Below, piece by piece: positions 1 through 21,207 of a stretch of 30,278 bases of DNA (the stretch's first letter is position 1; the number at the start of each line of letters is the position of its first letter). The translations under genes and the position numbers were made by a program. This DNA comes from a virus. Below the pieces are notes generated by a model. That model ran no database searches, was not told where the DNA came from, and saw nothing but the letters and a program-made list of their open reading frames with translations. The stretch lies in IMG/VR virus record IMGVR_UViG_2799112924_000001; one strand, given 5' to 3'.

Positions 1-20
1 ATACAGTATCGTTAATGTTA
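1..20. repeat. Right end of a structured repeat site (copy R0), truncated by the window edge
   Basis: ATACAgtatcGTTAATGTTA (1-20) matches the R1 right end ATACAtggatGTTAATGTTA (1543-1562) with identical spacing. Confidence 0.6.
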
Positions 21-144
21 GATACCAATTCAAACAAGTCCTGATGGCTATCTTTTAACTCCCTTATACCTTTACCGTAATATACATCTCCTTTCATATA
101 GATAGTATGAAAGTTGTCATACTTATATATTTTGTCGGAAAAAT

Positions 145-164
145 ATTACTTTTCAAATGCTCTC
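145..164. repeat. 20-bp inverted repeat, left copy (partner 3258-3277)
   Basis: ATTACTTTTCAAATGCTCTC is the exact reverse complement of 3258-3277. Confidence 0.9.
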
Positions 165-203
165 TCTAACAATATTTAAAAAATAAAATACATAGGTGAT
201 AGC

Positions 204-1337
204 ATGAATAACGAGCTCATTAAGAATATGTGTTTAAGTTGCAATCATTCAAAACAGACACAGAACAACTATAACCTTTCACTTCGGAAGTACTGTGAAT
301 ATTTCGACATGTCACTTGAGGAACTTCTGATGGAAGCTGAAGAAGATGAAAAGAACAATGTAAGATGGAAAAATTGCCGTTTAAGAGCTAAACTGATTGA
401 ATTCAGACACCACCTGTTACAGAATTATGCTGCAAGCACTGTGAAAAAAGACATCTGGAGCATCAAATTCTTTTACAAATTCTATGACATTGAAATACAA
501 TCATTGCCTAGAGTTACCCAACAGTCTTTGAGAAAACCCCAGCCAATCTACTATAAGGATTTACCTGACAAAGAAGTGATAAGGGAAGCATTTAAAATAT
601 CTTCACCATTGATGAAAGCCATAATACTGTTTTCATGTTCAAGCGGTTGTGCCAGAGCAGAAGCATTGAGTTTAACCATACAGGATTACATAGATGCAGT
701 ATCAGAATATATACCTAGGCGCAGAATGGACATTTTTGAGGTAATTGATTTCTTGAACGAAAAGGATGATGTCGTGCCTACCTTCAATCTCCGAAGGAAA
801 AAAACAAACAAATATTATATCACATATTGCAGTCCAGAAGCAGTAAATGCAATCAATGCATATATTTTAACACGCACAGATTCAGTTAAAAATGACAGCC
901 CCCTATTCGATGTAAGCCCAACACATCTTGGAAGATCATTTCAAAAAATAAACGATACATTGAATCTTGGAAATGTTGGAAAATATGCTAGATTCAGAAG
1001 CCACATGCTGAGGAAATTCCATGCAAGCGCATTATACAACGACGGCATGAGCATAGACAAGGTCAACGATTTGCAGGGAAAGGCTAAAAACGTAACTGAT
1101 TCCGTTTATTTCATGACCAATCCTGAAGAGTTGAAATATGAATACATCAGGCATTTGCCTGCCGTAACAATCAATATGGATGTTGAAAAGCTATCAATCA
1201 AGTCTCCTGAGTTCATGCAACTGGAAAATGATAAAAAGAAATTGGAAACTGAACTTGAGGTCCTTAAGCGAGAAGTGGCAGATATCCGATCGATGAAAAA
1301 GGATTTTGAACTCCTTAAAGCACAGATAGGAAAATAA
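204..1337 (+). CDS. Tyrosine recombinase/integrase (XerC/D superfamily)
   Basis: SSGCARAEAL box I, RSHMLRKFHA (HxxR), LQGK box II and VYF catalytic Tyr region; N-terminal SAM-like core-binding region; GGTGAT RBS. Confidence 0.9.
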   Translation: MNNELIKNMCLSCNHSKQTQNNYNLSLRKYCEYFDMSLEELLMEAEEDEKNNVRWKNCRLRAKLIEFRHHLLQNYAASTVKKDIWSIKFFYKFYDIEIQSLPRVTQQSLRKPQPIYYKDLPDKEVIREAFKISSPLMKAIILFSCSSGCARAEALSLTIQDYIDAVSEYIPRRRMDIFEVIDFLNEKDDVVPTFNLRRKKTNKYYITYCSPEAVNAINAYILTRTDSVKNDSPLFDVSPTHLGRSFQKINDTLNLGNVGKYARFRSHMLRKFHASALYNDGMSIDKVNDLQGKAKNVTDSVYFMTNPEELKYEYIRHLPAVTINMDVEKLSIKSPEFMQLENDKKKLETELEVLKREVADIRSMKKDFELLKAQIGK

Positions 1338-1341
1338 TCTT

Positions 1342-1374
1342 GTGATGGCATTTGACCCTGTTGGATGCCATTAC
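1342..1374 (+). terminator. Hairpin immediately downstream of the integrase
   Basis: ATGGCAT (1345-1351) / ATGCCAT (1365-1371) stem, extendable by three pairs. Confidence 0.45.
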
Positions 1375-1409
1375 CAAACATTCATAATACTTGATGTCGA
1401 CCCCAATAT

Positions 1410-1438
1410 AATTAATGGCCGGCATTCCCCCATTAATT
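1410..1438. terminator. Second hairpin between convergent genes
   Basis: AATTAATGG (1410-1418) / CCATTAATT (1430-1438), perfect 9-bp stem. Confidence 0.4.
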
Positions 1439-1450
1439 TAACTAACTGGA

Positions 1451-1575
1451 ATTGACATTAACGGCAACGTTTTTGGATTTGGATTTGATTTTCGAACTGC
1501 GATATATATGCACGAGTTTCAAAATACCGGTTTTGAATAACTATACATGGATGTTAATGTTAATTGATTCAGAAC
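1451..1575. repeat. Structured repeat site R1 (full copy)
   Basis: Aligns over its full length with 2528-2652; outer IR AATTGACATTAAC / GTTAATGTTAATT; inner IR ATTTTCGAACT / AGTTTCAAAAT around GATATATATGCACG. Confidence 0.9.
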
Positions 1576-1586
1576 ACTCTATTGAA

Positions 1587-2444
1587 TTAATTAGCGTTCA
1601 ATCCAAATTTTTTAGTTAAAAGTTTTTTCTTGTATTTGGTTTCAATCTTTATAACTTCCTTTTTTTCCATATCTTCGGGCAATACTTTTAATATTGAAAA
1701 CTGAAATTCATTATATCTTTCAGGATGTTGATCAAGGAGTTCTATTAGCTTCTTATCATCACCGTCCTTTGTATTTGCATATGATGTCCAACGTTGTAAT
1801 ATTCCTTTTTCCCCATATGCTGATCCAACATATTTCTTTCCATCTGTAGTATCTACAATAAGATATATTCCATTAACGTTTGAAAGTGCGGTATGCCAAT
1901 CAGAGTATAAGTTAGGATTGTCCATTATTTCTTTTAATTTTGGATAGGATAATATGACATCTTCATAACTTGTAAATGGGATTTTTTTCTCTTTTTGGAT
2001 AGCTATTATTTCTTTTTCTGTAGTGCCTTTGTGATGCCACATACGATATCCATCGCCCCATTCAATCATTAAACGTTGTTCAAAATCTTTAAAAGTATCT
2101 AATCTTTCTAATTCAAAATATTTTCCATCACCATTAAAGTCTTCAGGTGCAGCAAATCCTTCTGGCATATTTTCTGGAGCATTTGTATATTCGCCATTAA
2201 CTTTGTAAAAACTATCTAAAATTGCAGTAGTTCCTTCACGGCTAATGAAAACTAGCCAATAATCATATTTGTTTGTAAAATTCTTCTTTTGGATGCAAGT
2301 ATATTCTTCTACCATATTATTATCGACATATTCTCTGCATTTATCATTTGAAAGCACATGCCTTATTAACATTATATTTTTTGGGTCAATATCTGTTTTT
2401 TTTAGAATGTCTGAAAGGAATAGTTTCACTTCCATAAATACCAC
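1587..2444 (-). CDS. GIY-YIG nuclease family protein with an N-terminal accessory domain
   Basis: GIYLIVDTTDGKKYVGSAYGEKGILQRW..Y motif and C-terminal IETKYKKKL. Confidence 0.85.
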   Translation of the reverse strand: MVFMEVKLFLSDILKKTDIDPKNIMLIRHVLSNDKCREYVDNNMVEEYTCIQKKNFTNKYDYWLVFISREGTTAILDSFYKVNGEYTNAPENMPEGFAAPEDFNGDGKYFELERLDTFKDFEQRLMIEWGDGYRMWHHKGTTEKEIIAIQKEKKIPFTSYEDVILSYPKLKEIMDNPNLYSDWHTALSNVNGIYLIVDTTDGKKYVGSAYGEKGILQRWTSYANTKDGDDKKLIELLDQHPERYNEFQFSILKVLPEDMEKKEVIKIETKYKKKLLTKKFGLNAN

Positions 2445-2527
2445 CTATTTTAATTGTATTAAATTATTGACTATAAGTTCGATATTTATTAGTTTATTAT
2501 GTATTGCTTATATAATTAAGAGTCGAC

Positions 2528-2652
2528 ATTAACATTAACGACCACGATATTGGAAATCAAATCTGATTTTAAACCCCAATATATATGCACGAGTTTCAGA
2601 ATACCAGTTTCGAATAGCTAGCCCCGGCCGTTAATGTTATTTGATCCAGAAC
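2528..2652. repeat. Structured repeat site R2 (full copy, same orientation as R1)
   Basis: Perfect 11-bp outer IR TAACATTAACG (2530-2540) / CGTTAATGTTA (2629-2639); shares ATATATATGCACGAGTTTCA and TTGATYCAGAAC with R1; CATTAAC-to-GTTAATG span is 104 bp in both. Confidence 0.9.
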
Positions 2653-2691
2653 AATTAAATTCTGAATCAATCATTTCGTATAAAAACAAGA

Positions 2692-3186
2692 TTATATGTC
2701 TCCGAATATTTCCTCACCCTTTTCGGTTAATCTGTACAGTTTTCCTCGTTTTACTTCAGGATTGACACATTCGACGAGGCCCAGCTCTTCCAACCGATTC
2801 AAGGGATTGGAAACATACGTCTGTTTGGTACTATTCCATTCCATGCCTTCCTGAAGAGACATTGCCTTAATATCTATCATATCCCAGTTTTCACGTCCGA
2901 CTTCCAGATTCCAGTTATAGATTATGTTGCAGGTTCGCTGTGAAATAAATCCGTTTTTTAAAACCTCCGTTATTTCATCTAGCGAATCCACCAGGAAGAA
3001 AATTGAATGGCTTGAATAAAATCCGTATCTTTGAACCCTTTCTTTTTGAGGGATGGAATGGAGGAATTTCAAAGCCTCATCATGTGTGCTTGTCCAAGTC
3101 AATCCGGAAACGTCTTTTTCATCTGTAAAATCAATTATATATTCGTAAATCCAATTCAGCAGGTTTTTATTGCTTTTGCGGATCAT
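2692..3186 (-). CDS. Protein with C-terminal winged-HTH (MarR-like) domain, putative regulator
   Basis: C-terminal LEELGLVECVNPEVKRGKLYRLTEKG is clearly homologous to 28126-28392 (LKAHELVECINPEVRKGRLYRLTDKG). Confidence 0.7.
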   Translation of the reverse strand: MIRKSNKNLLNWIYEYIIDFTDEKDVSGLTWTSTHDEALKFLHSIPQKERVQRYGFYSSHSIFFLVDSLDEITEVLKNGFISQRTCNIIYNWNLEVGRENWDMIDIKAMSLQEGMEWNSTKQTYVSNPLNRLEELGLVECVNPEVKRGKLYRLTEKGEEIFGDI

Positions 3187-3257
3187 CTTTTTTATACCTC
3201 ACTTTTTCATTAATAGTGATTAATTGTTTTATGTGACTGATTATTTAAGCTGAAAGC

Positions 3258-3277
3258 GAGAGCATTTGAAAAGTAAT
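3258..3277. repeat. 20-bp inverted repeat, right copy (partner 145-164)
   Basis: GAGAGCATTTGAAAAGTAAT. Confidence 0.9.
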
Positions 3278-4120
3278 CGCTTCAACAAAATGGCCGTATT
3301 GGCATTTAAATTAATTGATATCATTGAACTGCCAGCAGTTTACACCGTACTTAAATGATAATCTGATTATATTTGAATAAATACTTTTGACAATTGTTAT
3401 GCTCTGAAAACAGTGCCCTGATATGTATTTTGATTATGACTTCGTTTCACTGGCAAGTGTTAGGCTTCATTCCAATTTGAATTTTATACAATCTGATTTT
3501 TTTGTCGAAATAGTCTGTTGAAATGTTTAGCAAAATTTGTGAAAACACAAGGCTTAAGGACACAATAAATTTCAAAAAAACTGAACAGATTAATATCGAA
3601 TCGCAAAAAATAGAATGCAAATGTTTAAATAGAGATAATTACAAACAAAGTAATTGGCCCACACCATTATTACGAAGTCAGAGCAATTTTACATGCTCGT
3701 ACAACTTTTTCTTGGTGAGGCCTAAACAGTAATCTATGGAGGTAAAATATCAAAAAAAGTAATGAGAAAAAACAGATTATAAAAAAAGGATTATATTATG
3801 AATAACGAGCTAAATATTATTTTTTAATATAATCCTATGGGGTCAGTAAGAGAAAAATAAGAATAGTTAAACAGAGCCGCGAAACTTTGTTAAAAATTAA
3901 TACTTTTCAAAACTTAACCCAATATCTAGTATATTTTAAGGAATATATAAATATTGCCACATTAACAATGGCAAACTTATTTTATTCTAAATATTCGTTA
4001 AGAGATGGAAAATTAATTTTACTCGAATGCTATTTTTATTTTTCAAAGACTTCTGGCCTCAATGTGTTTTAGACTGTTGATCATGCACTCCCATAATGGG
4101 AAAACAGGAGGCACCAAATA

Positions 4121-4279
4121 ATGTGTGAAGTAATCAAACCCCGGCCCAATGAAGTAATAATTTTCAATAACTTCATGGCACTTGAAGAAGCAATTGCTGA
4201 AATTCAGGAAACTGAAAACATCCGCAATGAAAAGGAATTCTTCGATTCATACAGAATCAAGATAATGAAACTGGACTAA
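4121..4279 (+). CDS. Small hypothetical protein (52 aa), not in the ORF track
   Basis: GGAGG RBS at 4107-4111; MCEVIKPRPNEVIIFNN...KIMKLD; first of a tightly packed + strand run. Confidence 0.65.
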   Translation: MCEVIKPRPNEVIIFNNFMALEEAIAEIQETENIRNEKEFFDSYRIKIMKLD

Positions 4280-4322
4280 ACACGAATAAAAAATATTTAA
4301 AACACAAGAGAGGTCAAAAAAT

Positions 4323-4427
4323 ATGTTTGAACAAGAAATTGATGGCGTACAATACGTTACAGTCCCCAAAGAGCTATGGGACAAAATGTGGGAAATGTTT
4401 GATAAAATTGATCAAATAGGTGAATAG
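4323..4427 (+). CDS. Small hypothetical protein (34 aa), not in the ORF track
   Basis: GAGAGGT RBS; MFEQEIDGVQYVTVPKELWDKMWEMFDKIDQIGE; its 3' end carries the GGTGA RBS of the next gene. Confidence 0.6.
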   Translation: MFEQEIDGVQYVTVPKELWDKMWEMFDKIDQIGE

Positions 4428-4429
4428 AC

Positions 4430-5104: not shown

Positions 5105-5138
5105 AATGAATTCCTCCAATCAACATGAAGGTGATAAA

Positions 5139-5702: not shown

Positions 5703-5734
5703 TCCTCTTTAATATTTTTTAGGAGACAAATAAA

Positions 5735-6136
5735 ATGAGTTTTGAAAATACTAAACAAACAATATTTACAGGTACAGAACTAGATTACGAAGAAATTGTA
5801 GAAATTCCAGAAGGATATGAAAAAGCAGAATTGAAAGATTTTGAAGATGGAACATTAATCACCGGCAGGCCTGAAATGGCTTCAGTAACATCATTCACTT
5901 TCGATGATGACGGTGAGGAAAAAACCGTTAACAGATTCAAATTATACATCTTCCAGGATGCTGACCAGTTATATGTTGAAATCAATGTCAATCTTAAAAA
6001 TGATGGAGACATTCACAAAAACGTCAGAAAAGGAAGCGTGTTATTTGATTTCTTAACCAGCATTCTTGTCCAAGTAAAGGAAAGATCCGGAACCTACACA
6101 TTCTACAGTTTCATTGTGAGGGACGTTCAGGTATAA
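5735..6136 (+). CDS. Hypothetical acidic beta-rich protein (possible ssDNA-binding protein)
   Basis: GGAGA RBS; lies between annealing-like and helicase genes; function inferred from position only. Confidence 0.5.
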   Translation: MSFENTKQTIFTGTELDYEEIVEIPEGYEKAELKDFEDGTLITGRPEMASVTSFTFDDDGEEKTVNRFKLYIFQDADQLYVEINVNLKNDGDIHKNVRKGSVLFDFLTSILVQVKERSGTYTFYSFIVRDVQV

Positions 6137-6146
6137 GGTAATTGAA

Positions 6147-8402: not shown

Positions 8403-8424
8403 TTAGAATAACGAGCTGATAAAA

Positions 8425-8816: not shown

Positions 8817-8818
8817 TT

Positions 8819-9222: not shown

Positions 9223-10632
9223 TCATGTCGAATACCATTTATCAACATCAACTCTTCGAGGTTGCTTTTCATTAGCTAGTTTTTCATAACCTCCAGTGAA
9301 CGCCACAACACAGTCATCATGGATGGCTTCATTCGGATAAGCTGTTATTTTTTCCAGAAATTCCATGGCCCATTTTTTCGTAAACCCTGTTCTATCCTTC
9401 CCAACCAGGTATATTCCATTGAGTTGAATATCTGCTGAAACTCTTCTTGCACGATCAACTTTGTTCTCTCTTGAGTTGCCCGTACCTGTAGTGAATCCTC
9501 TTCTTGTTAACTCATCAATTATAAGCAATCCAAAGTTTTTACCAGTGCTCCCATCGAGTTCAATATACTGCACATCTGACTTGTCACGTGCTGCAGTATT
9601 GACAATTTCATTGATTAAGTTTCTTGACTCAAGCTGAAATTCATATGAATCCACAATGTAGATATTGCCGTTTATATCTTTAGCCAGCAATACTCCAGCA
9701 GTGTAATCGGGATCGCTACCTTTCAACTTATCATCATTCAACACTTCAGTTGCAGCTAGATCCCAATACCTGATAATTCTGACAATTGGAATTTTTAAGT
9801 ATTCATCATGTGAAATCAAGTGGAAGTCCGCTTCATCAAATAGCTGACCTTTAACGCTTGCATACCAGTTACCGTTCATTAACTGCTCTCTTGTTACCCT
9901 ATCCAATCCCATAAGGTATTCTTCATAGTCTTTTCTGTCCAGATAGATGTTATCCAAATAGCTGGAGCTGATGAACCTTATTTGTGATTTGTCCTGAATG
10001 TCTTCATCTATTTTTTCTATGAATCTTTCACGAACCCATTTGTTTCCACGTTTACCCGGATTGCTGGAGCACATTAACTGTGTCGGAAGCTTGTTGTCTT
10101 TTGTTTTCCTTACTCTAGAGCGCATATAGATATATTTGAATCTCTCCAGTTGTGTCAGCTCATCAATGCCGATGAATTGATATTCAGAACCTTGATAAGT
10201 ATCCAAATCGTTAATGTTACGCAAATATCCAAATGTTAATGAATTGCCGTTTGGAAATGTCCATGAATGTTCAGTACCATCCCACTTTGGCCTAATGGCT
10301 GAATTATTTTGAATTTCCTTTCTGTTTAACCACTGGCTGGCCTTATGGATTAAAGCTCCTTTACGCTTCAGGTCAGATAAGGTACGTCTCAGAATTAATG
10401 CATGATATTCGTTGGTATCATCCTCAACATAAAACAATGCCCTCATCAATAGACTTGTTGATTTGCTTCCTCCAGCTGCGCCTCCAATCAAAACTTCCTT
10501 TTCTGTAGCCAATATCATTTCAGCTTGTTTTGGAAAAGGATTGAATGGAATATATGGATTCTCATATACACATTTCTGAAGAATAGCTTTGTCTTTAGCA
10601 TCTAAATGGAATTTACCGTTTTCATCATACAT
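9223..10632 (-). CDS. terL: Terminase large subunit (start likely 10632, ATGTATGA overlap with upstream stop; ORF track start 10656)
   Basis: GGAAGGSKS Walker A, FIGIDELTQ Walker B, SSNPG motif, nuclease motifs YWDLAAT, DPDYTAG, HDD. Confidence 0.92.
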   Translation of the reverse strand: MYDENGKFHLDAKDKAILQKCVYENPYIPFNPFPKQAEMILATEKEVLIGGAAGGSKSTSLLMRALFYVEDDTNEYHALILRRTLSDLKRKGALIHKASQWLNRKEIQNNSAIRPKWDGTEHSWTFPNGNSLTFGYLRNINDLDTYQGSEYQFIGIDELTQLERFKYIYMRSRVRKTKDNKLPTQLMCSSNPGKRGNKWVRERFIEKIDEDIQDKSQIRFISSSYLDNIYLDRKDYEEYLMGLDRVTREQLMNGNWYASVKGQLFDEADFHLISHDEYLKIPIVRIIRYWDLAATEVLNDDKLKGSDPDYTAGVLLAKDINGNIYIVDSYEFQLESRNLINEIVNTAARDKSDVQYIELDGSTGKNFGLLIIDELTRRGFTTGTGNSRENKVDRARRVSADIQLNGIYLVGKDRTGFTKKWAMEFLEKITAYPNEAIHDDCVVAFTGGYEKLANEKQPRRVDVDKWYST

Positions 10633-11434
10633 TATTATCATCAATCTGCTTTGCAAGGATTTCTATTTCATTCATGATGTCCTTTTGAGACATTTCAATT
10701 TTCTTATCTTCAAGTTCTAAAACTCTGTTTTGGAATAGTCTGTCCATTTCATCTTTGAATAATTTGTTTTTAGCGTCAAATGCTTTAACAGACAGTTCAA
10801 GGTATCTGATTTTTAATTCCGCCAGATCAAGCAAGTATCTTGCCAAGCTTTTTTCCCCTGCATGATATCTTACTTCCTGATCCAGTTTTGCAAAATCAAT
10901 TTCAATACCAACAGCGTTTTTGGTAATCTTGTCAAGATTGTCGAGTCCCGTTTTGATGTCTGTGACCTGCTGCTGAAGTATGGTATCAATAGCCATGTCA
11001 ATGTTGTCCTGATGAGCATTAGTGTTTGTTATTTGTCTTTGACTGATGGCCCTATCTGTTAATGCCCCCTTATCTCTTGCTCTTGGGTCTTTTTCTTCAT
11101 CATTAAGATGATATTTCTTTTTGAATCTGGAGAATGTTGACCTGCTTACTTCGAATTCATGCTCTTCTGCAAGCCATCTTCTCACGCTTTGGTCTGTTGC
11201 TCCGGATGTTTTCATGGCTATTATTTCATCCAGCAATGTTTCCATGAAATCAGTTTTATTCAGGTTCAATGTTGCTTTGAACTTCCTGTAGGTAATGTCT
11301 GCAACATCCCGGTTGTATTTTGTTTTTAGCATTTCCCTGACTTCGTTGTTGCTCATTCCTTTTTTGCAGCAGTTCATTATTTCCTGTTCGTGCTGTTCCA
11401 AAAAGTAAATTACATCTGAGTTTCCCCTGCCCAT
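10625..11434 (-). CDS. Putative terminase small subunit
   Basis: Directly upstream of and overlapping terL; two HTH-like N-terminal repeats and a coiled-coil C-terminus. Confidence 0.55.
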   Translation of the reverse strand: MGRGNSDVIYFLEQHEQEIMNCCKKGMSNNEVREMLKTKYNRDVADITYRKFKATLNLNKTDFMETLLDEIIAMKTSGATDQSVRRWLAEEHEFEVSRSTFSRFKKKYHLNDEEKDPRARDKGALTDRAISQRQITNTNAHQDNIDMAIDTILQQQVTDIKTGLDNLDKITKNAVGIEIDFAKLDQEVRYHAGEKSLARYLLDLAELKIRYLELSVKAFDAKNKLFKDEMDRLFQNRVLELEDKKIEMSQKDIMNEIEILAKQIDDNNV

Positions 11435-12114: not shown

Positions 12115-12186
12115 GAATTTCAGAATTTCAAATCCAAAATTACAGTTTTCAATAGTTAGTGTTGCCTGCACAATAATAAATGTTAA
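12115..12186. repeat. Degenerate right half of the R1/R2 site
   Basis: GAATTTCAGAAT matches R2 GAGTTTCAGAAT at 11/12; TACAGTTTTCAATAGTTAG matches R2 ACCAGTTTCGAATAGCTAG at 14/19; ends AAATGTTAA. Confidence 0.5.
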
Positions 12187-12238
12187 GACCAATATAATCA
12201 ATAGAGAATTTTTTTCTTTTAATTTAATTTATCAACAC

Positions 12239-12310
12239 TGACATTAACGGAAGCCTTTTAGATAATACCCTCTGATTTTAAACTGTGATATATATGCAAA
12301 AGTTTTTAAA
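12239..12310. repeat. Left half of the R1/R2 site (R3)
   Basis: TGACATTAACGG...CTGATTTTAAACTGTGATATATATGCAAAAGTTT; CATTAAC to central GATATATATGCA offset is 45 nt, as in R1 and R2. Confidence 0.8.
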
Positions 12311-12338
12311 GGTTGTTTATTTTTCTTTTAAATAAATA

Positions 12339-12731
12339 TTAAATTAACAGCAACTTCATTAAATAATCGCTATTTTCTATATAGCAAAATGACTGTGGAC
12401 CTGTGTAATCTTTCATTTCAATAAATTCATCAAAAACCTTTAGATTATTTATTTTGATTGCATAACCCTTTTCACGGTCTTTGAAGTATTCGAAAAAATC
12501 CTTTTTAGATATTCCTGAAACTTCAGAATATGAATTCCATAACTCCTCTGGAGATTTGTGTATGATTTCATCAACCTCAAAATATCCTACAATCTTTTTA
12601 ACAGGATAAGATGAATATATATAAATTCTCTCAACATTTTCTTTGAAAATTGACTTTCTGAATTCATATTGCTTTTCACCAGTTAGAATCCGATTTACAA
12701 ATTCTGGCTTGATTGACATTAGTACATTCAT
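12339..12731 (-). CDS. ASCH (PUA-like) domain protein (start moved from 12770)
   Basis: LMSIKPEFVNRILTGEKQYEFRK...IYSSYPVKKIVGYF signature; GTGAT RBS before ATG 12731. Confidence 0.85.
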   Translation of the reverse strand: MNVLMSIKPEFVNRILTGEKQYEFRKSIFKENVERIYIYSSYPVKKIVGYFEVDEIIHKSPEELWNSYSEVSGISKKDFFEYFKDREKGYAIKINNLKVFDEFIEMKDYTGPQSFCYIENSDYLMKLLLI

Positions 12732-12844
12732 AAAATCACTTAAAAAATTTCTATTAATTAATATATGCATATCTTAATAATTAAATTAATCATTAGAAGT
12801 TCCTTTAAATTAAAATAAAAAAAATAGATGTTAACAATATCTTG

Positions 12845-13660
12845 TTAACTGCTATACAAATCTGTAAATATCCAACTTGGATCATAAGCTAGGATGTATC
12901 CATCATCACACCAGATTGATTTAACATTACCTGAAGTTGTATCTGCTACTGCAGCCGGGTCTCTATTAATCCAGTTCCCACCAGTATGTTTTTTATGCTT
13001 GAGTCTTAATCTTATGTGTCCTGTTCCAGATACTCTGCATTTGACGTGGACAAACTGCACATCATAGCCTAATGATTTAGCTATTCTGTAATAAACCTGC
13101 CCCCAGTCCACACAATTGGAACCTTTACCTGATTTAGCATCGTTAATTGTTTTCTTGTCTGTTTTTTGTGAATCAAAGTATTTACTGTATAATTTCTTCT
13201 TTGCTATAACAGCTAATGCCTCATCAATGGTATTTCCTTTGAAGTTGAATGTATTGATAAATAGCTTCATTGTGGAATCCTTGTAGTCAGGAAGGGTAGA
13301 CATTCTGTATACAATAGCTGGAAGTCTTTTATTTGCTCTGATATATGCTTCTGTCCTTATGGCCATGTCCACATATTCGGCTTTATCAATCTGAAGACCA
13401 TTCTTTAATGTCACATAGTTTGGAAGGAAGTCTAAAGACTTGTTGTCTTTGATTAATGCCATTGTGTACATAGCTACTAGCTTGTCTGTACCTAACTTCT
13501 TTGCTTTCTTTTCAACATCCTTACAGTTACCTTTTAAGGTTAATATTTGGTAATAGTCACGTTTTTGGTATTTCTTTTTGTTCTGGAGTAGCCAATAAGC
13601 AATTGAATTCATTGCTTGTGAGAACTGTGTCCAGCTTATACTATCTTTATTATCTGACAT
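12845..13660 (-). CDS. Pseudomurein endoisopeptidase (PeiW/PeiP-like endolysin) with pseudomurein-binding repeat
   Basis: NCVDWGQ...LGYDVQFVHVKC..GTGHIRLRL...RDPAA matches the Cys/His/Asp layout of PeiW; YVDMAIRTEAYIRANKRLPAIV resembles a pseudomurein-binding repeat. Confidence 0.85.
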   Translation of the reverse strand: MSDNKDSISWTQFSQAMNSIAYWLLQNKKKYQKRDYYQILTLKGNCKDVEKKAKKLGTDKLVAMYTMALIKDNKSLDFLPNYVTLKNGLQIDKAEYVDMAIRTEAYIRANKRLPAIVYRMSTLPDYKDSTMKLFINTFNFKGNTIDEALAVIAKKKLYSKYFDSQKTDKKTINDAKSGKGSNCVDWGQVYYRIAKSLGYDVQFVHVKCRVSGTGHIRLRLKHKKHTGGNWINRDPAAVADTTSGNVKSIWCDDGYILAYDPSWIFTDLYSS

Positions 13661-13795
13661 ATTATATTATTTATATAAACAAGATAATAAATTTATGTAT
13701 GGTAAAGATAAAGAATATGTTGAACCTGAAGTAAAAGGGGTGGAAAAATAATACAATTATGCAGAGTAAGTCTTCAAGTCCAACTATAACTCTTT

Positions 13796-14338
13796 TTATT
13801 CTTTATCTATTGATTCTAGTATTTCATTCATCAATTTAACAGTGTCAATATCATTTTCGGCACCAACTTCGTATTCAATAATGGAACCAACTATTTTATC
13901 TAGAGATCTGTCCTGAATAGCTGAGACTACTCTTAATTTTTTGTGAGTTTCATAATCTACTTTAACATTTATTCTTTTTCTTGGGTTTCCTTTATCTAAT
14001 AGCTTATCGTTGAGGTCATAAGCTGTATTGTCAATGTCAACTCGTTTTAACCATCCATATATCTTTTCAGAATTATCAAATGACATTTTAACATACTTAA
14101 CAATATCCAAATCAGATATTTTATCTTCAATAATTGCTGTAGCTATTTTTTCTATAGTGGTATCCTTTGATGCAACTATTACTTTTAATGTTTTATGAGT
14201 ATTCGGGAATAGCTTGACAGTTATTTGTTTTTTAGGAAGTTCGCCCATTTCGTTAATGTAATCTTCACGCACTTCTTTCATTTTGTTTTCACGTTCTATT
14301 TGCTTTTGAATTAACTCATCAAATTTATCGTCTGCCAT
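13796..14338 (-). CDS. Tandem ribbon-helix-helix (ParG/CopG-like) protein
   Basis: Internal repeat KKQITVKLFPNTHKTLKVIVASKDTTIEKI / RKRINVKVDYETHKKLRVVSAIQDRSLDKI. Confidence 0.7.
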   Translation of the reverse strand: MADDKFDELIQKQIERENKMKEVREDYINEMGELPKKQITVKLFPNTHKTLKVIVASKDTTIEKIATAIIEDKISDLDIVKYVKMSFDNSEKIYGWLKRVDIDNTAYDLNDKLLDKGNPRKRINVKVDYETHKKLRVVSAIQDRSLDKIVGSIIEYEVGAENDIDTVKLMNEILESIDKE

Positions 14339-14363
14339 TTTTATACCTCCTGCAAATTTAATA

Positions 14364-14392
14364 ATGTATTTACATTTAAGATGTACTTACAT
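14364..14392. promoter_or_regulatory. Two palindromic operator-like sites upstream of the tandem RHH gene
   Basis: ATGTAttTACAT (14364-14375) and ATGTActTACAT (14381-14392), next to a - strand TTTATATA TATA box near 14411-14418. Confidence 0.55.
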
Positions 14393-14442
14393 ATAATATG
14401 TTTTTATAAGTATATAAACATTATCATCAAATTATAAATAAG

Positions 14443-14489
14443 CTGTCCAACTCTGTTGGACAGGTTGCGACGAACGAAGTGAGTCGCAA
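14443..14489. other. Twin GC-rich hairpins
   Basis: CTGTCCAAC-tct-GTTGGACAG (14443-14463) and TTGCGAC-gaacgaagtga-GTCGCAA (14465-14489). Confidence 0.8.
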
Positions 14490-14534
14490 TAGGTATATAT
14501 AGAAAAAATAAGTATTATATGGTTGATTAACAAG

Positions 14535-14547
14535 TTAACATTAACGA
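14535..14547. repeat. Left-end motif of the R1/R2 site
   Basis: TTAACATTAACGA identical to 2529-2541. Confidence 0.5.
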
Positions 14548-14561
14548 TTGGATTTTCATTA

Positions 14562-14960
14562 CTAGAACTTATCAATGTCTCTGTTATGGATCCACTCACG
14601 ATGCTTTCCAATAGCTACTCTAACAATAACATCAATAAGATCTGTTTCATCTTCTTTTTTGAAGTAATAATAAGCAGGTCCTTCCAGCATCTGCCTTAAA
14701 TCATAGAAAGGTCTCGGTTTGACTGCATCAGGATTCATCAATCCATAATTCTTCAATATCTTTACATTATCTGTTTCGTATTTCTCTAATTTGGATTTTT
14801 GAACTTTAGTAGCCACTGTTTTTTCTTTCTTATCAAATATCTTAGCTATTTGGGTGCTGTCAATTAATATACTGGATTCAATTAATAGTAATGTTATTTC
14901 TTTTCCTTTAACAGTTAACATGGTGGGTTGTGAATTTTCATTATCTAAAATTAATTTCAT
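14562..14960 (-). CDS. Hypothetical protein, possible HTH DNA-binding
   Basis: IDSTQIAKIFDKKEKTV resembles an HTH; GAGG RBS. Confidence 0.5.
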   Translation of the reverse strand: MKLILDNENSQPTMLTVKGKEITLLLIESSILIDSTQIAKIFDKKEKTVATKVQKSKLEKYETDNVKILKNYGLMNPDAVKPRPFYDLRQMLEGPAYYYFKKEDETDLIDVIVRVAIGKHREWIHNRDIDKF

Positions 14961-15021
14961 TTTATAGCCTCTATTATATAATATGGCTACTTAATTAAAT
15001 ATATGTTTTTAAAAAAGTGGA

Positions 15022-16659
15022 TTAGTTGTTAATGTCCGATATTAAATTTTTAATGAATTCTGATATCTTCTTTGTTTTTTCTTCCCCAGGAATTAAACCA
15101 AATGCCCCAACTGACCTAATACATTTCTCGTTCTCATAATATAATTCATTATTAATCCCCGGATATATGACATAAGCTCCAATTGTATTTGGAATTGCGT
15201 CTTTATATGCATGCATCTTAACAATATCCTCATTTTTAAACTTATCTGAATCAACATACATCTTGTATTTGGCATCGAAATGAATGAAGTACTTTTTATC
15301 AGATGCATTTACTCTTAAAGTATAATCCGGTCTTAACTTAACTGAATATGATTTATACTCATTATCAGTTTTCTTAAATGTTTTATTATAAAATAAATCA
15401 ATTTCAACTCCATTGTAATTAAAACTTTTAATAATTCCCTCTCGAAGCTCAATTGACATACCATCCTCACTGATTGTGAATATATCCTCAAAATTAACTT
15501 TGCAATCACATAACTCTTGCATAATTTCTATTAATTTAAAATAACACCAATATTCATATAATTCATAGACCTTTTTCTCATGACCTTTGAATTTATCTGT
15601 TAATTCTTTCCAATTAATTTTAAAACCAAATTCAAACATTAAATAATACGATAAAATATCCCTGTAGCCTTCTTTTTTCTGCAGAACCTGTGAATTTAAA
15701 GGAATATGATCTAATCTTGAAATCTCTTTAAAATATCTTTGGCTTAAATAATAATTCAGTTCTTGTTTGTATACTTCTAATTTATCATATGCATAACCTT
15801 CATTGATTTTAGTAAGTAGGTCATCGATTAAATCACTTATTAATTCTAAAAAATATTTATAGAACCTATTTTCTGATACATCAATTGTATCCTCGTATTT
15901 TGTTTCATTAACAGATAGTGGAATGTTATTGCATAATTCTTCTGAGTCAAGTATAGCATCAATTAAATCATCAGGACTAATATTTGATGCGAAAGATGTC
16001 GGTACTTCTTCTTTAACATTTTCTAAAGTCGAATATAAATTTCTAGACAAATATTCAATGACTGAAGGCAAATGTTCTTCTCTTAAAATATATTCTAAAA
16101 GCATGAATTTCTCATAAGGACTTTGATTTTCATTTTCAAGTAAAAATTCTTGATAAATTGGAGAGTTTAATTCAAAAAGAATTCCTGAAGCGTATTTTGA
16201 TAAATCTCCTATCATTTGAGGATAGTGTTTATTGTAATTGAGCTTTCTAGATTGAATTTCAATCGGCATGGAAAAAATACATTCACCTTCTTTGTAAATG
16301 TCAATGAAAGTTTTTCCGACATAGCTAGAAAACTGCAAATAACCTTTGTAGTTGTTTTCAAATTCAAATAATGTTAGTTGAGAGTTATCTCGGTACTCTT
16401 TAAGGGTTTTGAATACCTCTAATCCTTTTTCATTACTTTCAAATGAGATATCATATTTAAACTCTTCCAAAAGACAAATGTTAGCAAATTCATTATTCTT
16501 ATTGTATATAATGGGAATTGTTTGGGTGGGATTATATGCAATAGGAACATTAGTTAGACAAATGTTATCTATTTGAACTATATTATTGGATGAGTATTTG
16601 CTTTCAGTAGATAAAATAATTATACCAATACCTGCATCAATTTTAACAATCTGTTTCAT
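15022..16659 (-). CDS. DUF2357/PD-(D/E)XK nuclease, McrC-like partner of McrB
   Basis: KVYELYEYWCYFKLI, RPDYTL, FDAKYK, KMHAYKDAI motifs; directly downstream of McrB. Confidence 0.88.
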   Translation of the reverse strand: MKQIVKIDAGIGIIILSTESKYSSNNIVQIDNICLTNVPIAYNPTQTIPIIYNKNNEFANICLLEEFKYDISFESNEKGLEVFKTLKEYRDNSQLTLFEFENNYKGYLQFSSYVGKTFIDIYKEGECIFSMPIEIQSRKLNYNKHYPQMIGDLSKYASGILFELNSPIYQEFLLENENQSPYEKFMLLEYILREEHLPSVIEYLSRNLYSTLENVKEEVPTSFASNISPDDLIDAILDSEELCNNIPLSVNETKYEDTIDVSENRFYKYFLELISDLIDDLLTKINEGYAYDKLEVYKQELNYYLSQRYFKEISRLDHIPLNSQVLQKKEGYRDILSYYLMFEFGFKINWKELTDKFKGHEKKVYELYEYWCYFKLIEIMQELCDCKVNFEDIFTISEDGMSIELREGIIKSFNYNGVEIDLFYNKTFKKTDNEYKSYSVKLRPDYTLRVNASDKKYFIHFDAKYKMYVDSDKFKNEDIVKMHAYKDAIPNTIGAYVIYPGINNELYYENEKCIRSVGAFGLIPGEEKTKKISEFIKNLISDINN

Positions 16660-16668
16660 TTTAAAAAC

Positions 16669-18450
16669 CTAATTAATAAAAGAAACGTATCTCTGTTTAT
16701 CTAAAACATTTTGCATTTCTTTAATTTTTGCTTTTGAAGTTGGATAATCCTCACAAGCTTCAAGAAGTCTATCTAATGTTTCACCAAGAACCTTTTGAGA
16801 TCCATGTAATTTTGGAAGCATTTTTTGTTTTACTTGGGCATCAAAATACCTTTTCCAATCCCAATTGCTTTGTTTATCTTCATAAACATATGCAACTGCC
16901 ATAAAACGAGTAATTTCATTAATTACTCTAAAACCAAAGTCAAAACCTGCATCCTTAAGAATATCCTGGAAGTTAAAAAGTTCAGTGGACAATTCGTCCC
17001 AAAATTCTTCATTGTCAAATAATTTTTCTAATTCTTGAATAGACATTTCTTGAACTTCATTGCCTTTTAAAATATCTTCCAAGTATTTGATATTTCCAGT
17101 TGGAGCATTTTTATTTAAATTATTGGTCATATAATCTTTAGCAGAGTAAGTTTTAAATTCAATAGTATTAGCCCTATCTAAAACTTTAGGAGAGAACATG
17201 TAAGTAGTTTCATCAACATTAACAGTACCAATTATGAATAGGTTATTCGGCAATTCCAGTCCTTCTTTTTTATGTGCAAGGGGAATAGTCTCTTTACTTT
17301 CAATCGCCGATAAAAAGTCTGCAAAATACCTTTCAACATGAGAAAGATTCATTTCATCTAAAATTAGAAAATGAGGGTATGATTTCTCTTGGGATTGTTT
17401 AATTAAGTAATATGCAGGAGTGTATTGAGGTTTATTATTAAGAATATTACAATAACCAAGGATATGCCTATTTTCAGTCCAATTGGCCCCAACAGGAATG
17501 ATTCTATAGTTGTTTTTATCATTTAAGTATTGAGCAAACAATTGAGATAATTTAGTTTTACCAGTCCCAGAATTCCCTGTGAGAATTACAAAAGGTTTAA
17601 CTTTAAGAGACAATAAATAATTTTCTATAGTTTCTCCATCGAAGTAGTACCCGTTTCCAATCAGATAATCATAAAATGTATCATAAACTTTATTAGTTGT
17701 TTCTTTTTCTTCTTCTTCAATTGGTTCTTCAATTGGTAAATCATTTCTTTTTATTTCATTAAAATAATCATTATAATTACTGAAATATTGATACAAATCA
17801 ATGAATTCGTTTAAATCATCTTCAAGTTCACTTTCAGGCGGTAAAAATATATTTTTATCTTCATCAAATTCATAATATTTGCAATAAATGTTCCCAGCAC
17901 CATAAGCTTTTGCAAGATTCTTATTTGCTTCTAAATCACAAGTTTCACTGTATTTGCTGAAATCCAAATTACTTTCACGGTCATTGTCATTAATAGTTTT
18001 CACATGATTTCTGAATTTGCTCGCAATATTTTTAATCTTATCTAAGTCATTTTGATTGAAAGAAGCTTTTTTATACTCTTTAAACTGATTAACTCCTAAA
18101 CCTAGACATAAATAGACTCCTTTCCCATTAGGTTTGAATAGGTATACAATATAATAATTTTCATTGATTGAAGGGGTTTCTGGGTTAGTAATAGTAATAT
18201 AAGCAACAACATCTGCTCCTTGGGATAAACTACTATACTTAACATTATAAGAATTATTTGTATTCTTTAAAACAAGTTCTTGAATTGATTCTCTAAATTC
18301 ACCCAAAAAATTTGAATATTCCTTTTTTTTATTTTCCATTTCTTGATCAATAAGGCCCTTTTTTTTCTTCTCTTTTATATTTGCATACTCCCTAATACTT
18401 GGGTATTCTTTAATAATTTTTGTTAAACCTTCATTTAAATTCATTTTCAA
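16669..18450 (-). CDS. mcrB: McrB-family AAA+ GTPase with DUF3578-like N-terminal domain
   Basis: KPFVILTGNSGTGKTK, LILDEMNLSHVERYFADFLS, GTVNVDETT...DRAN; N-terminal YIVYLF...VYLCL. Confidence 0.9.
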   Translation of the reverse strand: MKMNLNEGLTKIIKEYPSIREYANIKEKKKKGLIDQEMENKKKEYSNFLGEFRESIQELVLKNTNNSYNVKYSSLSQGADVVAYITITNPETPSINENYYIVYLFKPNGKGVYLCLGLGVNQFKEYKKASFNQNDLDKIKNIASKFRNHVKTINDNDRESNLDFSKYSETCDLEANKNLAKAYGAGNIYCKYYEFDEDKNIFLPPESELEDDLNEFIDLYQYFSNYNDYFNEIKRNDLPIEEPIEEEEKETTNKVYDTFYDYLIGNGYYFDGETIENYLLSLKVKPFVILTGNSGTGKTKLSQLFAQYLNDKNNYRIIPVGANWTENRHILGYCNILNNKPQYTPAYYLIKQSQEKSYPHFLILDEMNLSHVERYFADFLSAIESKETIPLAHKKEGLELPNNLFIIGTVNVDETTYMFSPKVLDRANTIEFKTYSAKDYMTNNLNKNAPTGNIKYLEDILKGNEVQEMSIQELEKLFDNEEFWDELSTELFNFQDILKDAGFDFGFRVINEITRFMAVAYVYEDKQSNWDWKRYFDAQVKQKMLPKLHGSQKVLGETLDRLLEACEDYPTSKAKIKEMQNVLDKQRYVSFIN

Positions 18451-18532
18451 TACTCCAAAATATCCTTGATATCATATTTCATATTTAAATATTATTCTAT
18501 TTATTTTTTTATCAAAAAAAGTTAGATTTTAA

Positions 18533-18564
18533 AAAAGCTGAGATAGAGCCTTATCCCAGCTTTT
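18533..18564 (-). terminator. Hairpin downstream of the capsid genes
   Basis: AAAAGCTGAGATA / TATCCCAGCTTTT, 12 of 13 paired, 6-nt loop, A/T tracts on both sides. Confidence 0.6.
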
Positions 18565-18722
18565 AAAGGATTTGGAGTTAAATAAAAACTCTTAGCAGAA
18601 GATGTTAGTGAAGAAAAAGCAATTAAAACTTCACCAAATCAACCATTGAGATTTTTATATTCTTTTATCCCTACACGCATCCCTAACGAAAGGGCCAATA
18701 TATTTAGGAGTTAAATTATGGC

Positions 18723-19655
18723 TCATGCTCTGAAATTACCTTTGATGATTCTGTTAGGTGCATTCATTAACACTCCAACAGAGGAAAGTATGAATAGCTT
18801 TGTATACATCGGCAATTCATCACGGATGTCCTTACGCATGAATTCAATCAACGGATAGAAGTCATACATCTCGCCGTCAGGACCTAAAGGTGCAACGGTT
18901 GTACCTGTGGTTCTAGAGTATAGCAATTTCATTCCAGGATTAATGTAGTCCATACCGATGTAGGTTTTATCTCCCATCTCGGAACCGCCATCGCAGACAG
19001 CAGTTCCAAGAATGTCTATGTTATCGACACCATAATAGCTTTTGATCAGTTCAACTGGTTCGACTTGCCTATTACTTTCGAATATGTCTGATTTTAAGGT
19101 TGTCAATGATTTGTAGCTTACGGCCATACTGTTTAAGTTAGCATAGCTTCCAGCTGATTCTTTGAACTTCTCTTGAGCTTTAAGGATGGTCATTCCAGTA
19201 TCGTCACCGCTTTGGAAGTTGTAGGTTGCAACTTTGGATGAGTTCATTATCATGTCAATAGCTGCCTTTTCAATACTACGGCCGATAAGAATACCAACGT
19301 CTTGAAGCATGTCATTAACGGAGATTAAATTGGAATCAAGCATTTGAGCGGAAACGTTTAATACTCCACCGATAGTGTCAATGGAGACTGTTTCACTGAT
19401 TGGTTTTCTAACGTTTAATTCCTGAAGGGTAGCACCAGGAGCAATATCTTTAGCCTCACCCAATACACCAGATTGAATAGCTTCTTCTATATTGACTCTT
19501 TGTGACATGTAAGTGTAGTACTGGCTGTTTTCCTGTATCTCTTGTTTTGGAAGTAATCTGGTGAATTTCATCCATTTCGCTGAAGTGTCAGCGACAATCT
19601 GTGCCATCACTTCATTTTGTACTTTAGCATCATTTCCTTTAGTTAACATTAACAT
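18723..19655 (-). CDS. HK97-like major capsid protein, paralog 2 (start may be 19649)
   Basis: GEAKDIAPGATLQEL...IGGVLNVSAQMLDSN...IGRSIE pattern typical of HK97-fold P-domain; about 310 aa. Confidence 0.7.
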   Translation of the reverse strand: MLMLTKGNDAKVQNEVMAQIVADTSAKWMKFTRLLPKQEIQENSQYYTYMSQRVNIEEAIQSGVLGEAKDIAPGATLQELNVRKPISETVSIDTIGGVLNVSAQMLDSNLISVNDMLQDVGILIGRSIEKAAIDMIMNSSKVATYNFQSGDDTGMTILKAQEKFKESAGSYANLNSMAVSYKSLTTLKSDIFESNRQVEPVELIKSYYGVDNIDILGTAVCDGGSEMGDKTYIGMDYINPGMKLLYSRTTGTTVAPLGPDGEMYDFYPLIEFMRKDIRDELPMYTKLFILSSVGVLMNAPNRIIKGNFRA

Positions 19656-19662
19656 TCACCTC

Positions 19663-20601
19663 TTATGGCCTGCAAGTACCTTTTAAAGCAAGACCTGGCT
19701 TATTTAATAATATACCTACTTTACTTTGTATAAACAACTTTGTATATTGAGGTAACTCATCATAGATGTCTTTACGCATGATTTCAATGATAGGATAGAA
19801 GTCTGCTATGTTTTCATCGCTTGTAATAGGTGCAACAGTAGTTCCACTTGATTTAGAGTATAATACTGTTAATGGTGCATTCCTAAGGTCAAAACCTATG
19901 TATTGTTTGTCACCTATTAATGATCCACCGTCAGCTTGAGTAGTTCCTAAAAGATCGATATTGTCAATACCGTAGTATTCTTTAATGTCCTCTACAGGCT
20001 GAACTAACTTGTTGGATGAGTAAGCTAATTGTTTGACATAGCTTAAGGTTTTATAAGACTCTGCCATTATTGTTAAATCAGCACCCGCTCCTGCATTACC
20101 TTTGAAAGCTTCCTGTGCTTTGATGACAAATTTTCCGTAAGCATCCATGGTATCTTGAGTTTCACTGGTATTGTAAACAGGAACATTTGGAGAGCTTATT
20201 AAAGTATCGTAAATGTTATATTCAATACGATTAGCAATAACGGTAGCTACATCACCTAATAAATCTTCAAATGAAACAATATCTGAATCAAACACATCCT
20301 TATTAACATTAAGGACACCACCAACAGTATCTATAGAAATAGTGTCTGTAACTGGTTTTCTAATGTTTAATTCTTGAAGTGATGCGCCTGGAGCAATGTC
20401 TTTAGCTTCCCCAAGTAAACCTTTTTTAATAGCTTCATCAAGATTAATGTTTTGTCTGAAATATGTGTAATAGTCAGAGTTCTCTTTGATTTCTTGTTTA
20501 GGAAACAATCTAGCTAATTTTAATCTTTTTGCGGTTTCATCAGTGATAGTTTGAGCTATTACCTCATTTTGTACTTTAGTATCATTTCCTTTTGTAATCA
20601 T
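19663..20601 (-). CDS. HK97-like major capsid protein, paralog 1
   Basis: Same pattern; about two-thirds identical to paralog 2 over the first ~100 aa by manual alignment. Confidence 0.7.
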   Translation of the reverse strand: MITKGNDTKVQNEVIAQTITDETAKRLKLARLFPKQEIKENSDYYTYFRQNINLDEAIKKGLLGEAKDIAPGASLQELNIRKPVTDTISIDTVGGVLNVNKDVFDSDIVSFEDLLGDVATVIANRIEYNIYDTLISSPNVPVYNTSETQDTMDAYGKFVIKAQEAFKGNAGAGADLTIMAESYKTLSYVKQLAYSSNKLVQPVEDIKEYYGIDNIDLLGTTQADGGSLIGDKQYIGFDLRNAPLTVLYSKSSGTTVAPITSDENIADFYPIIEIMRKDIYDELPQYTKLFIQSKVGILLNKPGLALKGTCRP

Positions 20602-20612
20602 TCATTATCACC

Positions 20613-21107
20613 TTAAGTTTGGCCTGTGGTTCCGATATCGTATGGTCTGAATACTTCAATGTATTTGTAATCATCTGAGCTTGCAACAGGGTGCATTGCT
20701 ATATATTCGCCGTCATTGGATTTGATAGCTCCAGTACTAGTTAAAGCTATTTTATCATTAACAGCAATGTTTGATAATCCACTAGCTAATTTTAATCTGA
20801 ATAAATGCCCTAATACAAGGATGGCTGTCTTTCTTTTACCACCAGTCATGGTAACCGGATCGTTGACTGCAATTCCTAAAATGATTTCTCCTTCAGCTGC
20901 AGTATATTTTTTAACTGTAGGTTTTCCAATATCTGAGTTTGCAGATAATGTTACAGCGTCATCGACTTTAACCTTGTTTCCTGCATACTCGTATCCGGGA
21001 GTTTCTCCAGTAGGAGTTGTTACGGTGGTTGCAGTAATTGTACCTTCATCTAATAAGAAAGTTGTGACTTCTTTTCTTTCTTCAAGTAAAATAATAGAAT
21101 CTGCCAT
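20613..21107 (-). CDS. Putative capsid decoration/cement protein
   Basis: 164 aa, beta-rich, ILGIAVND motif, directly upstream of capsid genes. Confidence 0.5.
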   Translation of the reverse strand: MADSIILLEERKEVTTFLLDEGTITATTVTTPTGETPGYEYAGNKVKVDDAVTLSANSDIGKPTVKKYTAAEGEIILGIAVNDPVTMTGGKRKTAILVLGHLFRLKLASGLSNIAVNDKIALTSTGAIKSNDGEYIAMHPVASSDDYKYIEVFRPYDIGTTGQT

Positions 21108-21180
21108 TATATATGTCCTCCACTTAATATAAAGATTTATATATAATGGCTACTTTTTTAAGAGTTTAGTAAAGATTGAT

Positions 21181-21207
21181 ATTAACATTAACAGTTGACA
21201 TTAACGG
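21181..21207. repeat. Doubled left-end motif of the R1/R2 site
   Basis: ATTAACATTAAC (21181-21192) identical to 2528-2539; TTGACATTAACGG (21195-21207) identical to 1452-1464. Confidence 0.55.

Follow-up and report, generated by a model that had tools for sequence, protein, structure and literature searches.

A dispersed intergenic repeat marks the borders of gene-module exchange in a methanogen genus and its proviruses

The provirus and its R copies

We analyzed a stretch of 30,278 nucleotides from the IMG/VR virus record IMGVR_UViG_2799112924_000001 (hereinafter the window) and describe here a short dispersed repeat, which we designate R, whose copies mark the borders of gene-module exchange in a methanogen genus and in its proviruses. 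The window corresponds to the complete contig C79 of a metagenome-assembled genome (2.29 Mb, 230 contigs, 33% G+C, 84% complete) and contains a tailed provirus of a pseudomurein-walled methanogen, with a cargo comprising a GIY-YIG protein, an ASCH protein, McrB/McrC, Vsr, and three 5-methylcytosine (m5C) methyltransferases. We found no description of R in the literature searched. The features of the window that bear on it are the following:

1–97, minus strand: 5′ part of a host gene of the CMD (carboxymuconolactone decarboxylase) family at the provirus-host junction, with a copy of the R end 9-mer inside it at 10–18
204–1337, plus strand: tyrosine integrase, 377 aa (PF00589, 31 bits)
1451–1564, plus strand: R1, full copy (78 bits), 118 bp after the integrase stop codon
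1587–2444, minus strand: GIY-YIG cargo module between R1 and R2, 285 aa, with a C-terminal nuclease domain
2528–2641, plus strand: R2, full copy in the orientation of R1 (81 bits), 51 bp from the stop codon of the next gene
2692–3186, minus strand: winged helix-turn-helix (wHTH) gene closing the variable slot, with weak winged-helix matches; conserved in all related proviruses
12236–12311, plus strand: R3, left half and center only, ending ~11 nt beyond the center
12339–12770, minus strand: ASCH-domain gene, cargo adjoining R3
13697–18585, minus strand: cargo block with an RHH gene, a 132-aa gene, and McrC/McrB; absent from the related provirus in genome G083; contains the R fragment at 14535–14547
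21178–21206, plus strand: cluster of left-end-type end-motif hexamers, bordering the Vsr/restriction-modification block on the left
21217–26153, no strand assigned: cargo block with Vsr, two unassigned genes, and two m5C methyltransferases; absent from G083

A preliminary description, made from the letters of the window alone, had reported a family of structured sites at cargo junctions and interpreted it as a separate archaeal tyrosine-recombinase cassette system that loads defense genes into a provirus. The observation is partly confirmed here; of the interpretation, the cassette-like layout is supported, and a tyrosine-recombinase, integron-like mechanism is not. R1 and R2 are indeed full direct repeats, 75% identical over 126 nt, as placed by a profile at the positions given above. 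The distance from the left end motif to the center is 45 nt in R1, R2, and R3, and the outer motifs of R1 and R2 span 106 bp. The partial copies stand as well: R3 constitutes a good left half, and fragments of the end motif are found just beyond the stop codon of the 132-aa gene adjoining McrC (14535–14547) and just beyond that of Vsr (21178–21206). Shuffled sequence would give 0.12 occurrences of the end 9-mer, ACATTAACG, in the window, where 11 are present. A third right end, which had been placed at 1–20 and which would put the integrase between copies, did not survive: this region has only the 9-mer, lying within the minus-strand coding part (~1–97) of the host CMD-family gene, whose full open reading frame (ORF) in G083 codes for 116 aa and matches PF02627. 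In the lysogens G028 and G041 the host gene is without the 9-mer, and similarity to the window starts only at position 60; hence, the integrase is not bracketed by R copies, and its attachment site needs no 9-mer. Judged from these same two genomes, the integrase attachment crossover lies near position 60, within window positions 1–105.

Solitary 9-mers are also seen within coding sequences, namely those of the terminase (10209–10217), the RHH gene (14251–14259), an unassigned gene (23406–23414), and a methyltransferase (26658–26666). The terminase-gene copy is kept in G083, in G056, and in the deposited virus vir323 amid varying neighboring bases; the copy at 14251 is not kept. A degenerate right half proposed at 12115–12186 was rejected, being undetected by the profile at E-values up to 1 and lying within backbone conserved with G083.

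Sequence, structure, and range of R

R is ~112 bp long (~135 bp including its left-flank motif) and is typified by a trio of near-invariant blocks set at fixed distances: ACATTAACG, GATATATAT (the central one), and CGTTAATGT. In the aligned copies the left end reads (T)GACATTAACG, with the hexamer often doubled, the right end reads CGTTAATGT(TAAT), and the span between them is 100–107 bp. The ends form invariant terminal inverted repeats of 9–11 bp, a T-tract lies ~15 nt 5′ of the central GATATATAT and an A-tract ~17 nt 3′ of it, and a left-flank motif, ATTTAATGA, stands 11–20 nt ahead of the left end. An inner inverted repeat, previously read as part of the site structure, is unsupported as a conserved pairing: RNAalifold on 36 copies recovered only the invariant 8-bp terminal pairing and no covariation, and a mirror-column test on 75 unique copies gave no within-copy complementarity past the ends. 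The single-strand folds vary among copies (z −1 to −5). The two-fold look of R stems from its consensus, not from pairing.

Scans of the window with Rfam (gathering thresholds) and for tRNAs returned no match; R is neither a known RNA family nor an attachment site derived from a tRNA. R1 and R2 share a micro-ORF of 10 codons that begins with the central ATG, which was likewise discarded, given the early stops in some copies and the loss of the start in whole subfamilies.

R was detected with a sequence-only model in 91 of 103 species genomes of the methanogen genus. A strict three-block pattern recovered it in 35 of 102 genomes of the genus, in one of 26 from one other genus, and in none of 27 further genera of the order, with the reversed three-block control matching in no genus of the order searched; a strict end-to-end pattern gave 25 of 103 genus genomes (reversed control: 0). 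R is, as such, nearly confined to one methanogen genus and almost absent elsewhere in the order. In the genome to which the window belongs, profile searches recovered further full copies on contigs C209 (two), C82, C228, C69, and C125, and partial ones on C37, C181, and C209. Genome G010 has 92 profile matches over both strands, corresponding to ~40 distinct loci among the matches listed; by a hand count of these, ~11 of ~24 neighboring pairs on one contig lie less than 5 kb apart, as against a random expectation of ~8%. Tandem pairs and triplets of R with constant gaps of 89–92 bp were seen at L112 9676–10195, L113 1323–1851, and in vir323 (L109) 4099–4420; the gaps contain three or four tandem end hexamers. 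Matches on the viral contigs L105–L108 (four of five to loose patterns) were set aside as chance, resembling those in shuffled sequence, in DNA of 36–40% G+C and with no profile match, and the match on L104 was treated in the same way.

Variable modules bordered by R

The content between R copies varies among closely related proviruses. Five of these are 96–99% identical to the window over the shared 5′ backbone (to ~12.3 kb) and more divergent beyond it, and similarity to the window breaks within R1 and R2, bearing out the earlier placement of these sites at cargo junctions. The position of R1 is filled in all five. In the slot between the integrase and wHTH genes, the window has R, the GIY-YIG gene, and R; G083 and G041 have R, two small ORFs, and R; G068 has a right-truncated R, ~250 bp without a gene, and R; and G056 has R, an uncharacterized 235-aa gene, R, a GmrSD gene, and R. 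The GIY-YIG gene is thus replaced or absent in G083, G041, G068, and G056; a relative of it in G035, 86% identical, has no R 3′ of it. Further, a cattle-metagenome contig (DNA run X14) joins window position 1512 to 2606 via 16 other letters, with a single hybrid R and no module. It represents an empty allele, of the kind for which the preliminary description had suggested looking.

Comparable differences are found farther along the provirus. The similarity of the window to related proviruses stops at 12310, within R3, where G083 has a full R copy (L098 7159–7271) followed by MarR, flavodoxin, and alpha/beta-hydrolase genes in place of the ASCH gene. The 132-aa gene of the McrC/McrB block has homologs of 131–133 aa in other proviruses, where a full R abuts or overlaps the 3′ end of this gene. 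The Vsr block measures 4.9 kb in the window versus ~250 bp in G083, whose similarity to the window stops at 21216, at the hexamer cluster.

Two R copies beside the endoisopeptidase gene also enclose cargo in a second provirus lineage (G018, G047, and G038), and this cargo takes three forms: a Dcm methylase paired with a MutH-like nuclease, an Exo_endo_phos gene, or a set of four small ORFs. Similarity is lost here where the left R ends and ~15 bp short of the right R. The restriction-modification module of this lineage, together with its left R, occurs at another backbone position in G053. Genes for m5C methyltransferases and the MutH-like nuclease and Dcm pair recur beside R in C209, G018, and G053; the regions concerned are 26484–27791 of the window and C209 4059–6748.

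R is by no means restricted to proviruses. From the chromosomal region between ThiC and PAN, R is absent in G035, G039, and G037; G056 and G084 have a single copy there, and G010 has three copies with two modules. The two G010 modules (L118, G010:C9:93000-99000, 1442–4356) are paralogues with ends 95–97% and middles ~70% identical, and look like alternative alleles of a variable gene pair. Other chromosomal neighbors of R include restriction-modification, zeta-toxin, Fic, adhesin-like, and major facilitator superfamily (MFS) transporter genes, and R is also scattered beside ordinary or housekeeping genes. The proposal of a system specific to loading defense genes into a provirus is too narrow.

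Gene-end position and composition of R

Of 54 left neighbors of R, 44 are gene ends, and of 53 right neighbors, 40 are ends of minus-strand genes, often with R touching the stop codon. T-runs of at least four occur in the left half of 58 of 75 copies and A-runs of at least four in the right half of 51 of the 75, and the T-tracts face incoming transcription from both sides of R. Both where R lies and how it is composed are suggestive of a two-way terminator or insulator. Contigs from RNA runs, available as assemblies only, cover the integrase and wHTH genes and end before R1, with the GIY-YIG part nearly uncovered; they are uninformative on expression, termination, or absence. In all genomes read (L124–L153), the stop codon of ThiC is directly followed by a hairpin and then a T-run, with compensating changes between species; on its sequence, it looks like an intrinsic-type terminator of this genus.

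Evidence bearing on the mode of exchange

The exchange points among the module-bearing proviruses fall at several places in R, and the copies are mosaics: at the left end (Ra of G056 versus Ra and Rb of G083), at the center (where the right half of Ra changes along with the cargo), and just ahead of the right end (G068 and G028). Across 75 copies, neighboring segments of 20 nt are weakly linked, and to a similar degree throughout (0.35, 0.38, 0.35), the center being no hotspot. As for the layout, N modules with N+1 sites stand next to the integrase, and the modules hold 1–4 genes in either orientation; most arrays have no nearby integrase. R follows the integrase gene only in this provirus (118 bp, all six close relatives) and in a class of 56% identity (110–123 bp). 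The 24 next-closest integrase paralogues (59–71% identity) have no R within 1.5 kb; the complete or near-complete genomes G001 and G007 possess the integrase family and no R, and G003 has 19 R matches and no integrase match at E below 1e-10. The expected co-occurrence with the integrase is, on these counts, inconsistent.

Nor does the integrase itself have the signature of an integron integrase. Its best NCBIfam match, to the archaeal XerA, scores 56 bits where the cut-off is 220, and covers the C-terminal catalytic part only; the XerA, XerC, and XerD matches are all far below threshold, and beyond these and the generic Phage_integrase match (31 bits) no IntI-specific signature was found. The R copies lack attC-type R″/L″ and L′/R′ pairing with a conserved structure; their ends, CATTAAC and GTTAATG, agree with RYYYAAC and GTTRRRY at five of seven positions and do not qualify as integron core sites. 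They also differ from the 28-bp pdif/Xer sites in alternating orientation, R being ~112 bp and directly oriented. A search for attachment-site repeats of the provirus in G008 gave nothing clear. Given that R lacks a conserved fold and a fixed crossover and is only inconsistently linked to the integrase, a tyrosine-recombinase or integron-like mechanism is not supported and seems doubtful.

Interpretation and alternatives

The closest working analogue of R is the PeSL (promoter-early stem-loop) of T4-type phages, an intergenic repeat of hyperplastic regions, for which circles arising from exchange have been described (Arbiol et al., 2010, PMC2839356; PMC4122927). Both are short intergenic repeats concentrated in variable regions, bounding insertions, deletions, and replacements between near-identical genomes, and R copies do bound the differences among the near-identical genomes compared here. 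PeSLs need no dedicated recombinase, and recombination between neighboring copies predicts circles with one repeat and a gene. R is unlike them in belonging to an archaeal genus and its proviruses, in being longer, and in having three invariant blocks and terminal inverted repeats and no stem-loop; further, promoter or terminator activity and mini-circles are features of PeSLs, and R is known here from assembled sequence. Recombination between repeat copies, as in the PeSLs, is the simplest account. We favor, at a rough probability of 0.5, the reading that R is a dispersed intergenic repeat that forms the borders of exchangeable gene modules, the exchange occurring by R-R recombination guided by repeat homology. 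On this reading, R copies, mostly at gene 3′ ends and in arrays, would serve as module borders in proviruses and in chromosomal accessory regions alike; modules would be gained, lost, and swapped through recombination between copies, leaving one R per module plus one; and repeat homology, as with the PeSLs, would guide the exchange in place of a fixed-point reaction by the neighboring integrase. The invariant blocks would be putative binding sites for a protein that gives each copy its local role, our best guess for this role being a two-way terminator or insulator, or else a recombination factor.

Several points weigh against this reading. Homology-driven exchange neither needs nor explains near-invariant 9-bp blocks at fixed spacing, and R copies, being only 50–85% alike, are poor substrates for ordinary homologous recombination. 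The exchange points can be mapped only to stretches common to two copies, and for this reason the several exchange positions discriminate poorly against a fixed site with later gene conversion. Module borders sometimes fall 15–76 bp outside R, and R fragments adjoin some cargo blocks of the window on just one side. A promoter or terminator role of R is a candidate one, and ThiC already has a hairpin and T-run terminator of its own ahead of the R copy.

That the three short blocks stay nearly unchanged, and at constant distances, in old, diverged, and even orthologous copies points to a protein that is sequence-specific, possibly a recombinase. One alternative is a true site-specific cassette system: a recombinase, either the tyrosine integrase of the provirus working in trans or some other enzyme that binds R, would bind the blocks in double-stranded R and excise or insert circular one-R modules, as an archaeal functional analogue of integrons or pdif modules. 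Near-invariance of the blocks across more than 70 otherwise diverged copies speaks for such a system, as do the N modules with N+1 sites in one orientation directly after the integrase in two provirus types, the empty allele with a single site, and the presence of one subtype within each array, as in chromosomal integrons; arrays without an integrase could then resemble CALINs (clusters of attC sites lacking integron integrases). Archaeal integrons with true attC folds and IntI have been published (Ghaly et al., 2022, PMC9668308), and, like R, attC sites are ~60–140 bp with inverted ends, delimit arrays of accessory, often defense, genes that start right after a tyrosine recombinase gene, are alike within an array, and have an empty allele. 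However, R has neither the conserved single-strand fold nor the extrahelical-base layout of attC, and its center is invariant where that of attC is variable; its modules have mixed gene orientation, single copies are scattered over chromosomes, and there is no single crossover. The R-less paralogues and genomes and the integrase-less G003 detailed above, the module borders outside R, and an integrase with no integron-integrase signature and with an attachment site of its own in the CMD gene, where the motif is unneeded, also speak against it. We consider a site-specific system of this sort a distinctly lesser possibility, and its fuller form, in which R is the double-stranded site of a dedicated archaeal system moving circular one-R modules between proviruses and chromosomal arrays, rather improbable.

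If R served instead as a regulatory unit, that is a terminator, insulator, or operator traveling with each accessory gene, recombination would be incidental to it. Its place mostly between converging gene ends, often at the stop codon, and the T-tracts facing transcription on both sides fit this, and the R center resembles a TATA box; at several loci the right end is directly followed by a TATA-like box, with the start of a same-strand gene 50–80 bp after that end, and the 9-mer is ~90-fold enriched in the provirus, solitary copies included. Archaeal promoters have an A-rich B recognition element (BRE) upstream of the TATA box, yet the R center has none directly upstream. Runs of four T are common at 33% G+C, ThiC already has its hairpin and T-run ahead of R, and the assembled RNA contigs end before R1; this account appears unlikely. 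A further alternative is that R is a selfish element akin to MITEs (miniature transposable elements with inverted repeats) in intergenic DNA, its presence at cargo borders being a by-product of tolerant variable regions. Bacterial intergenic repeats of this type, such as Correia/NEMIS, ERIC/IRU, and RUP (PMC10969869, PMC3184786), share with R a length of 100–150 bp, terminal inverted repeats, tens of copies, a preference for gene ends, and a genus- or family-limited range, and may have terminator or promoter effects. R is also of small size (span 100–107 bp; ~110 bp overall) with perfect terminal inverted repeats of 9–11 bp, is intergenic, abundant, and divided into subfamilies, shows presence and absence at ThiC-PAN, and occurs beside housekeeping genes. 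Nevertheless, 74 copies gave no target-site duplication of 2–9 bp, at offsets up to 25 bp, above shuffled controls, and no partner transposase was found: Y1_Tnp is missing from the R-rich G000 and G088, and DDE_Tnp_1 genes are present but at the four loci read are not flanked by R ends, other transposase families not having been searched. The ends and center remain invariant in old, diverged, orthologous copies, the empty allele retains one R rather than none, and R forms arrays bounding variable genes: by our own counts, the borders of variable DNA fall at R well above its share of the sequence, at ~4 of 10 ends in the window lineage, with R making up ~1% of the DNA, and at 6 of 6 in the second lineage. 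A MITE-like origin therefore seems quite unlikely, and a classical MITE is unlikely too. REP/REPIN elements with RAYT do not fit either, there being no arm-to-arm complementarity in R and, as noted, no Y1_Tnp in G000 and G088.

The same repeat in proviruses and chromosomes links the cargo slots of the viruses with the accessory arrays of their hosts, and offers a concrete, searchable marker for the entry and exit of accessory genes in both across ~90 species. The genus concerned dominates methane production in ruminants. If a dedicated enzyme does act on R, cassette systems would have been invented a second time, independently; if none does, the PeSL principle would extend from T4-type phages to archaea. 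In the MSTV1-like "usuviruses" of Methanobrevibacter, the stretch from the integrase gene to the wHTH gene is hypervariable (Baquero et al., 2024, PMC11375127). As in the window, a tailed virus with a pseudomurein endoisopeptidase has there an integrase, variable small defense and counter-defense genes, and a wHTH gene; the hypervariability of these gut-methanogen viruses was described in that report with neither a repeat element nor a mechanism. R is missing altogether from some genomes of the genus that possess the integrase family.

Other features of the provirus

Beyond the R-linked regions, the window codes for the expected functions of a tailed virus, including a collagen-like tail protein:

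9223–10656: terminase large subunit
12845–13660: pseudomurein endoisopeptidase with a PMBR repeat
18723–20601: two capsid paralogues

The nearest deposited virus is vir323, from goat feces, with its host given as Methanobacteriales; it is the only related virus found in the phage collection, is ~80% identical over the terminase region, and has four R copies. The public runs that contain window DNA are cattle and sheep gut metagenomes. The integrase is 99–100% identical in five other species-representative genomes, the corresponding proviruses, besides that of the window, being G068:C45, G083:C19, G041:C63, G056:C43, and G028:C28. The six genomes each represent a different species, which suggests a wide host range or transfer, or else mis-binned metagenome contigs.

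A 23-nt inverted repeat, 96% complementary, lies at 145–167 and 3255–3277, upstream of the inward-pointing integrase and wHTH genes. Distinct from the R family, it is likely a shared lysogeny-switch operator, comparable with the proposal for MSTV1 ORF6. At 6068/6069, all three related proviruses and one metagenome contig have 99 extra bases, which are not an R copy. The gene for the collagen-like tail protein contains repeats with a 9-bp period (28750–29530). The adjacent capsid-protein paralogues (18723–20601) have in common a 300-nt stretch of 70% identity, and vir323 also has a capsid pair, annotated as two HK97-like major head proteins.

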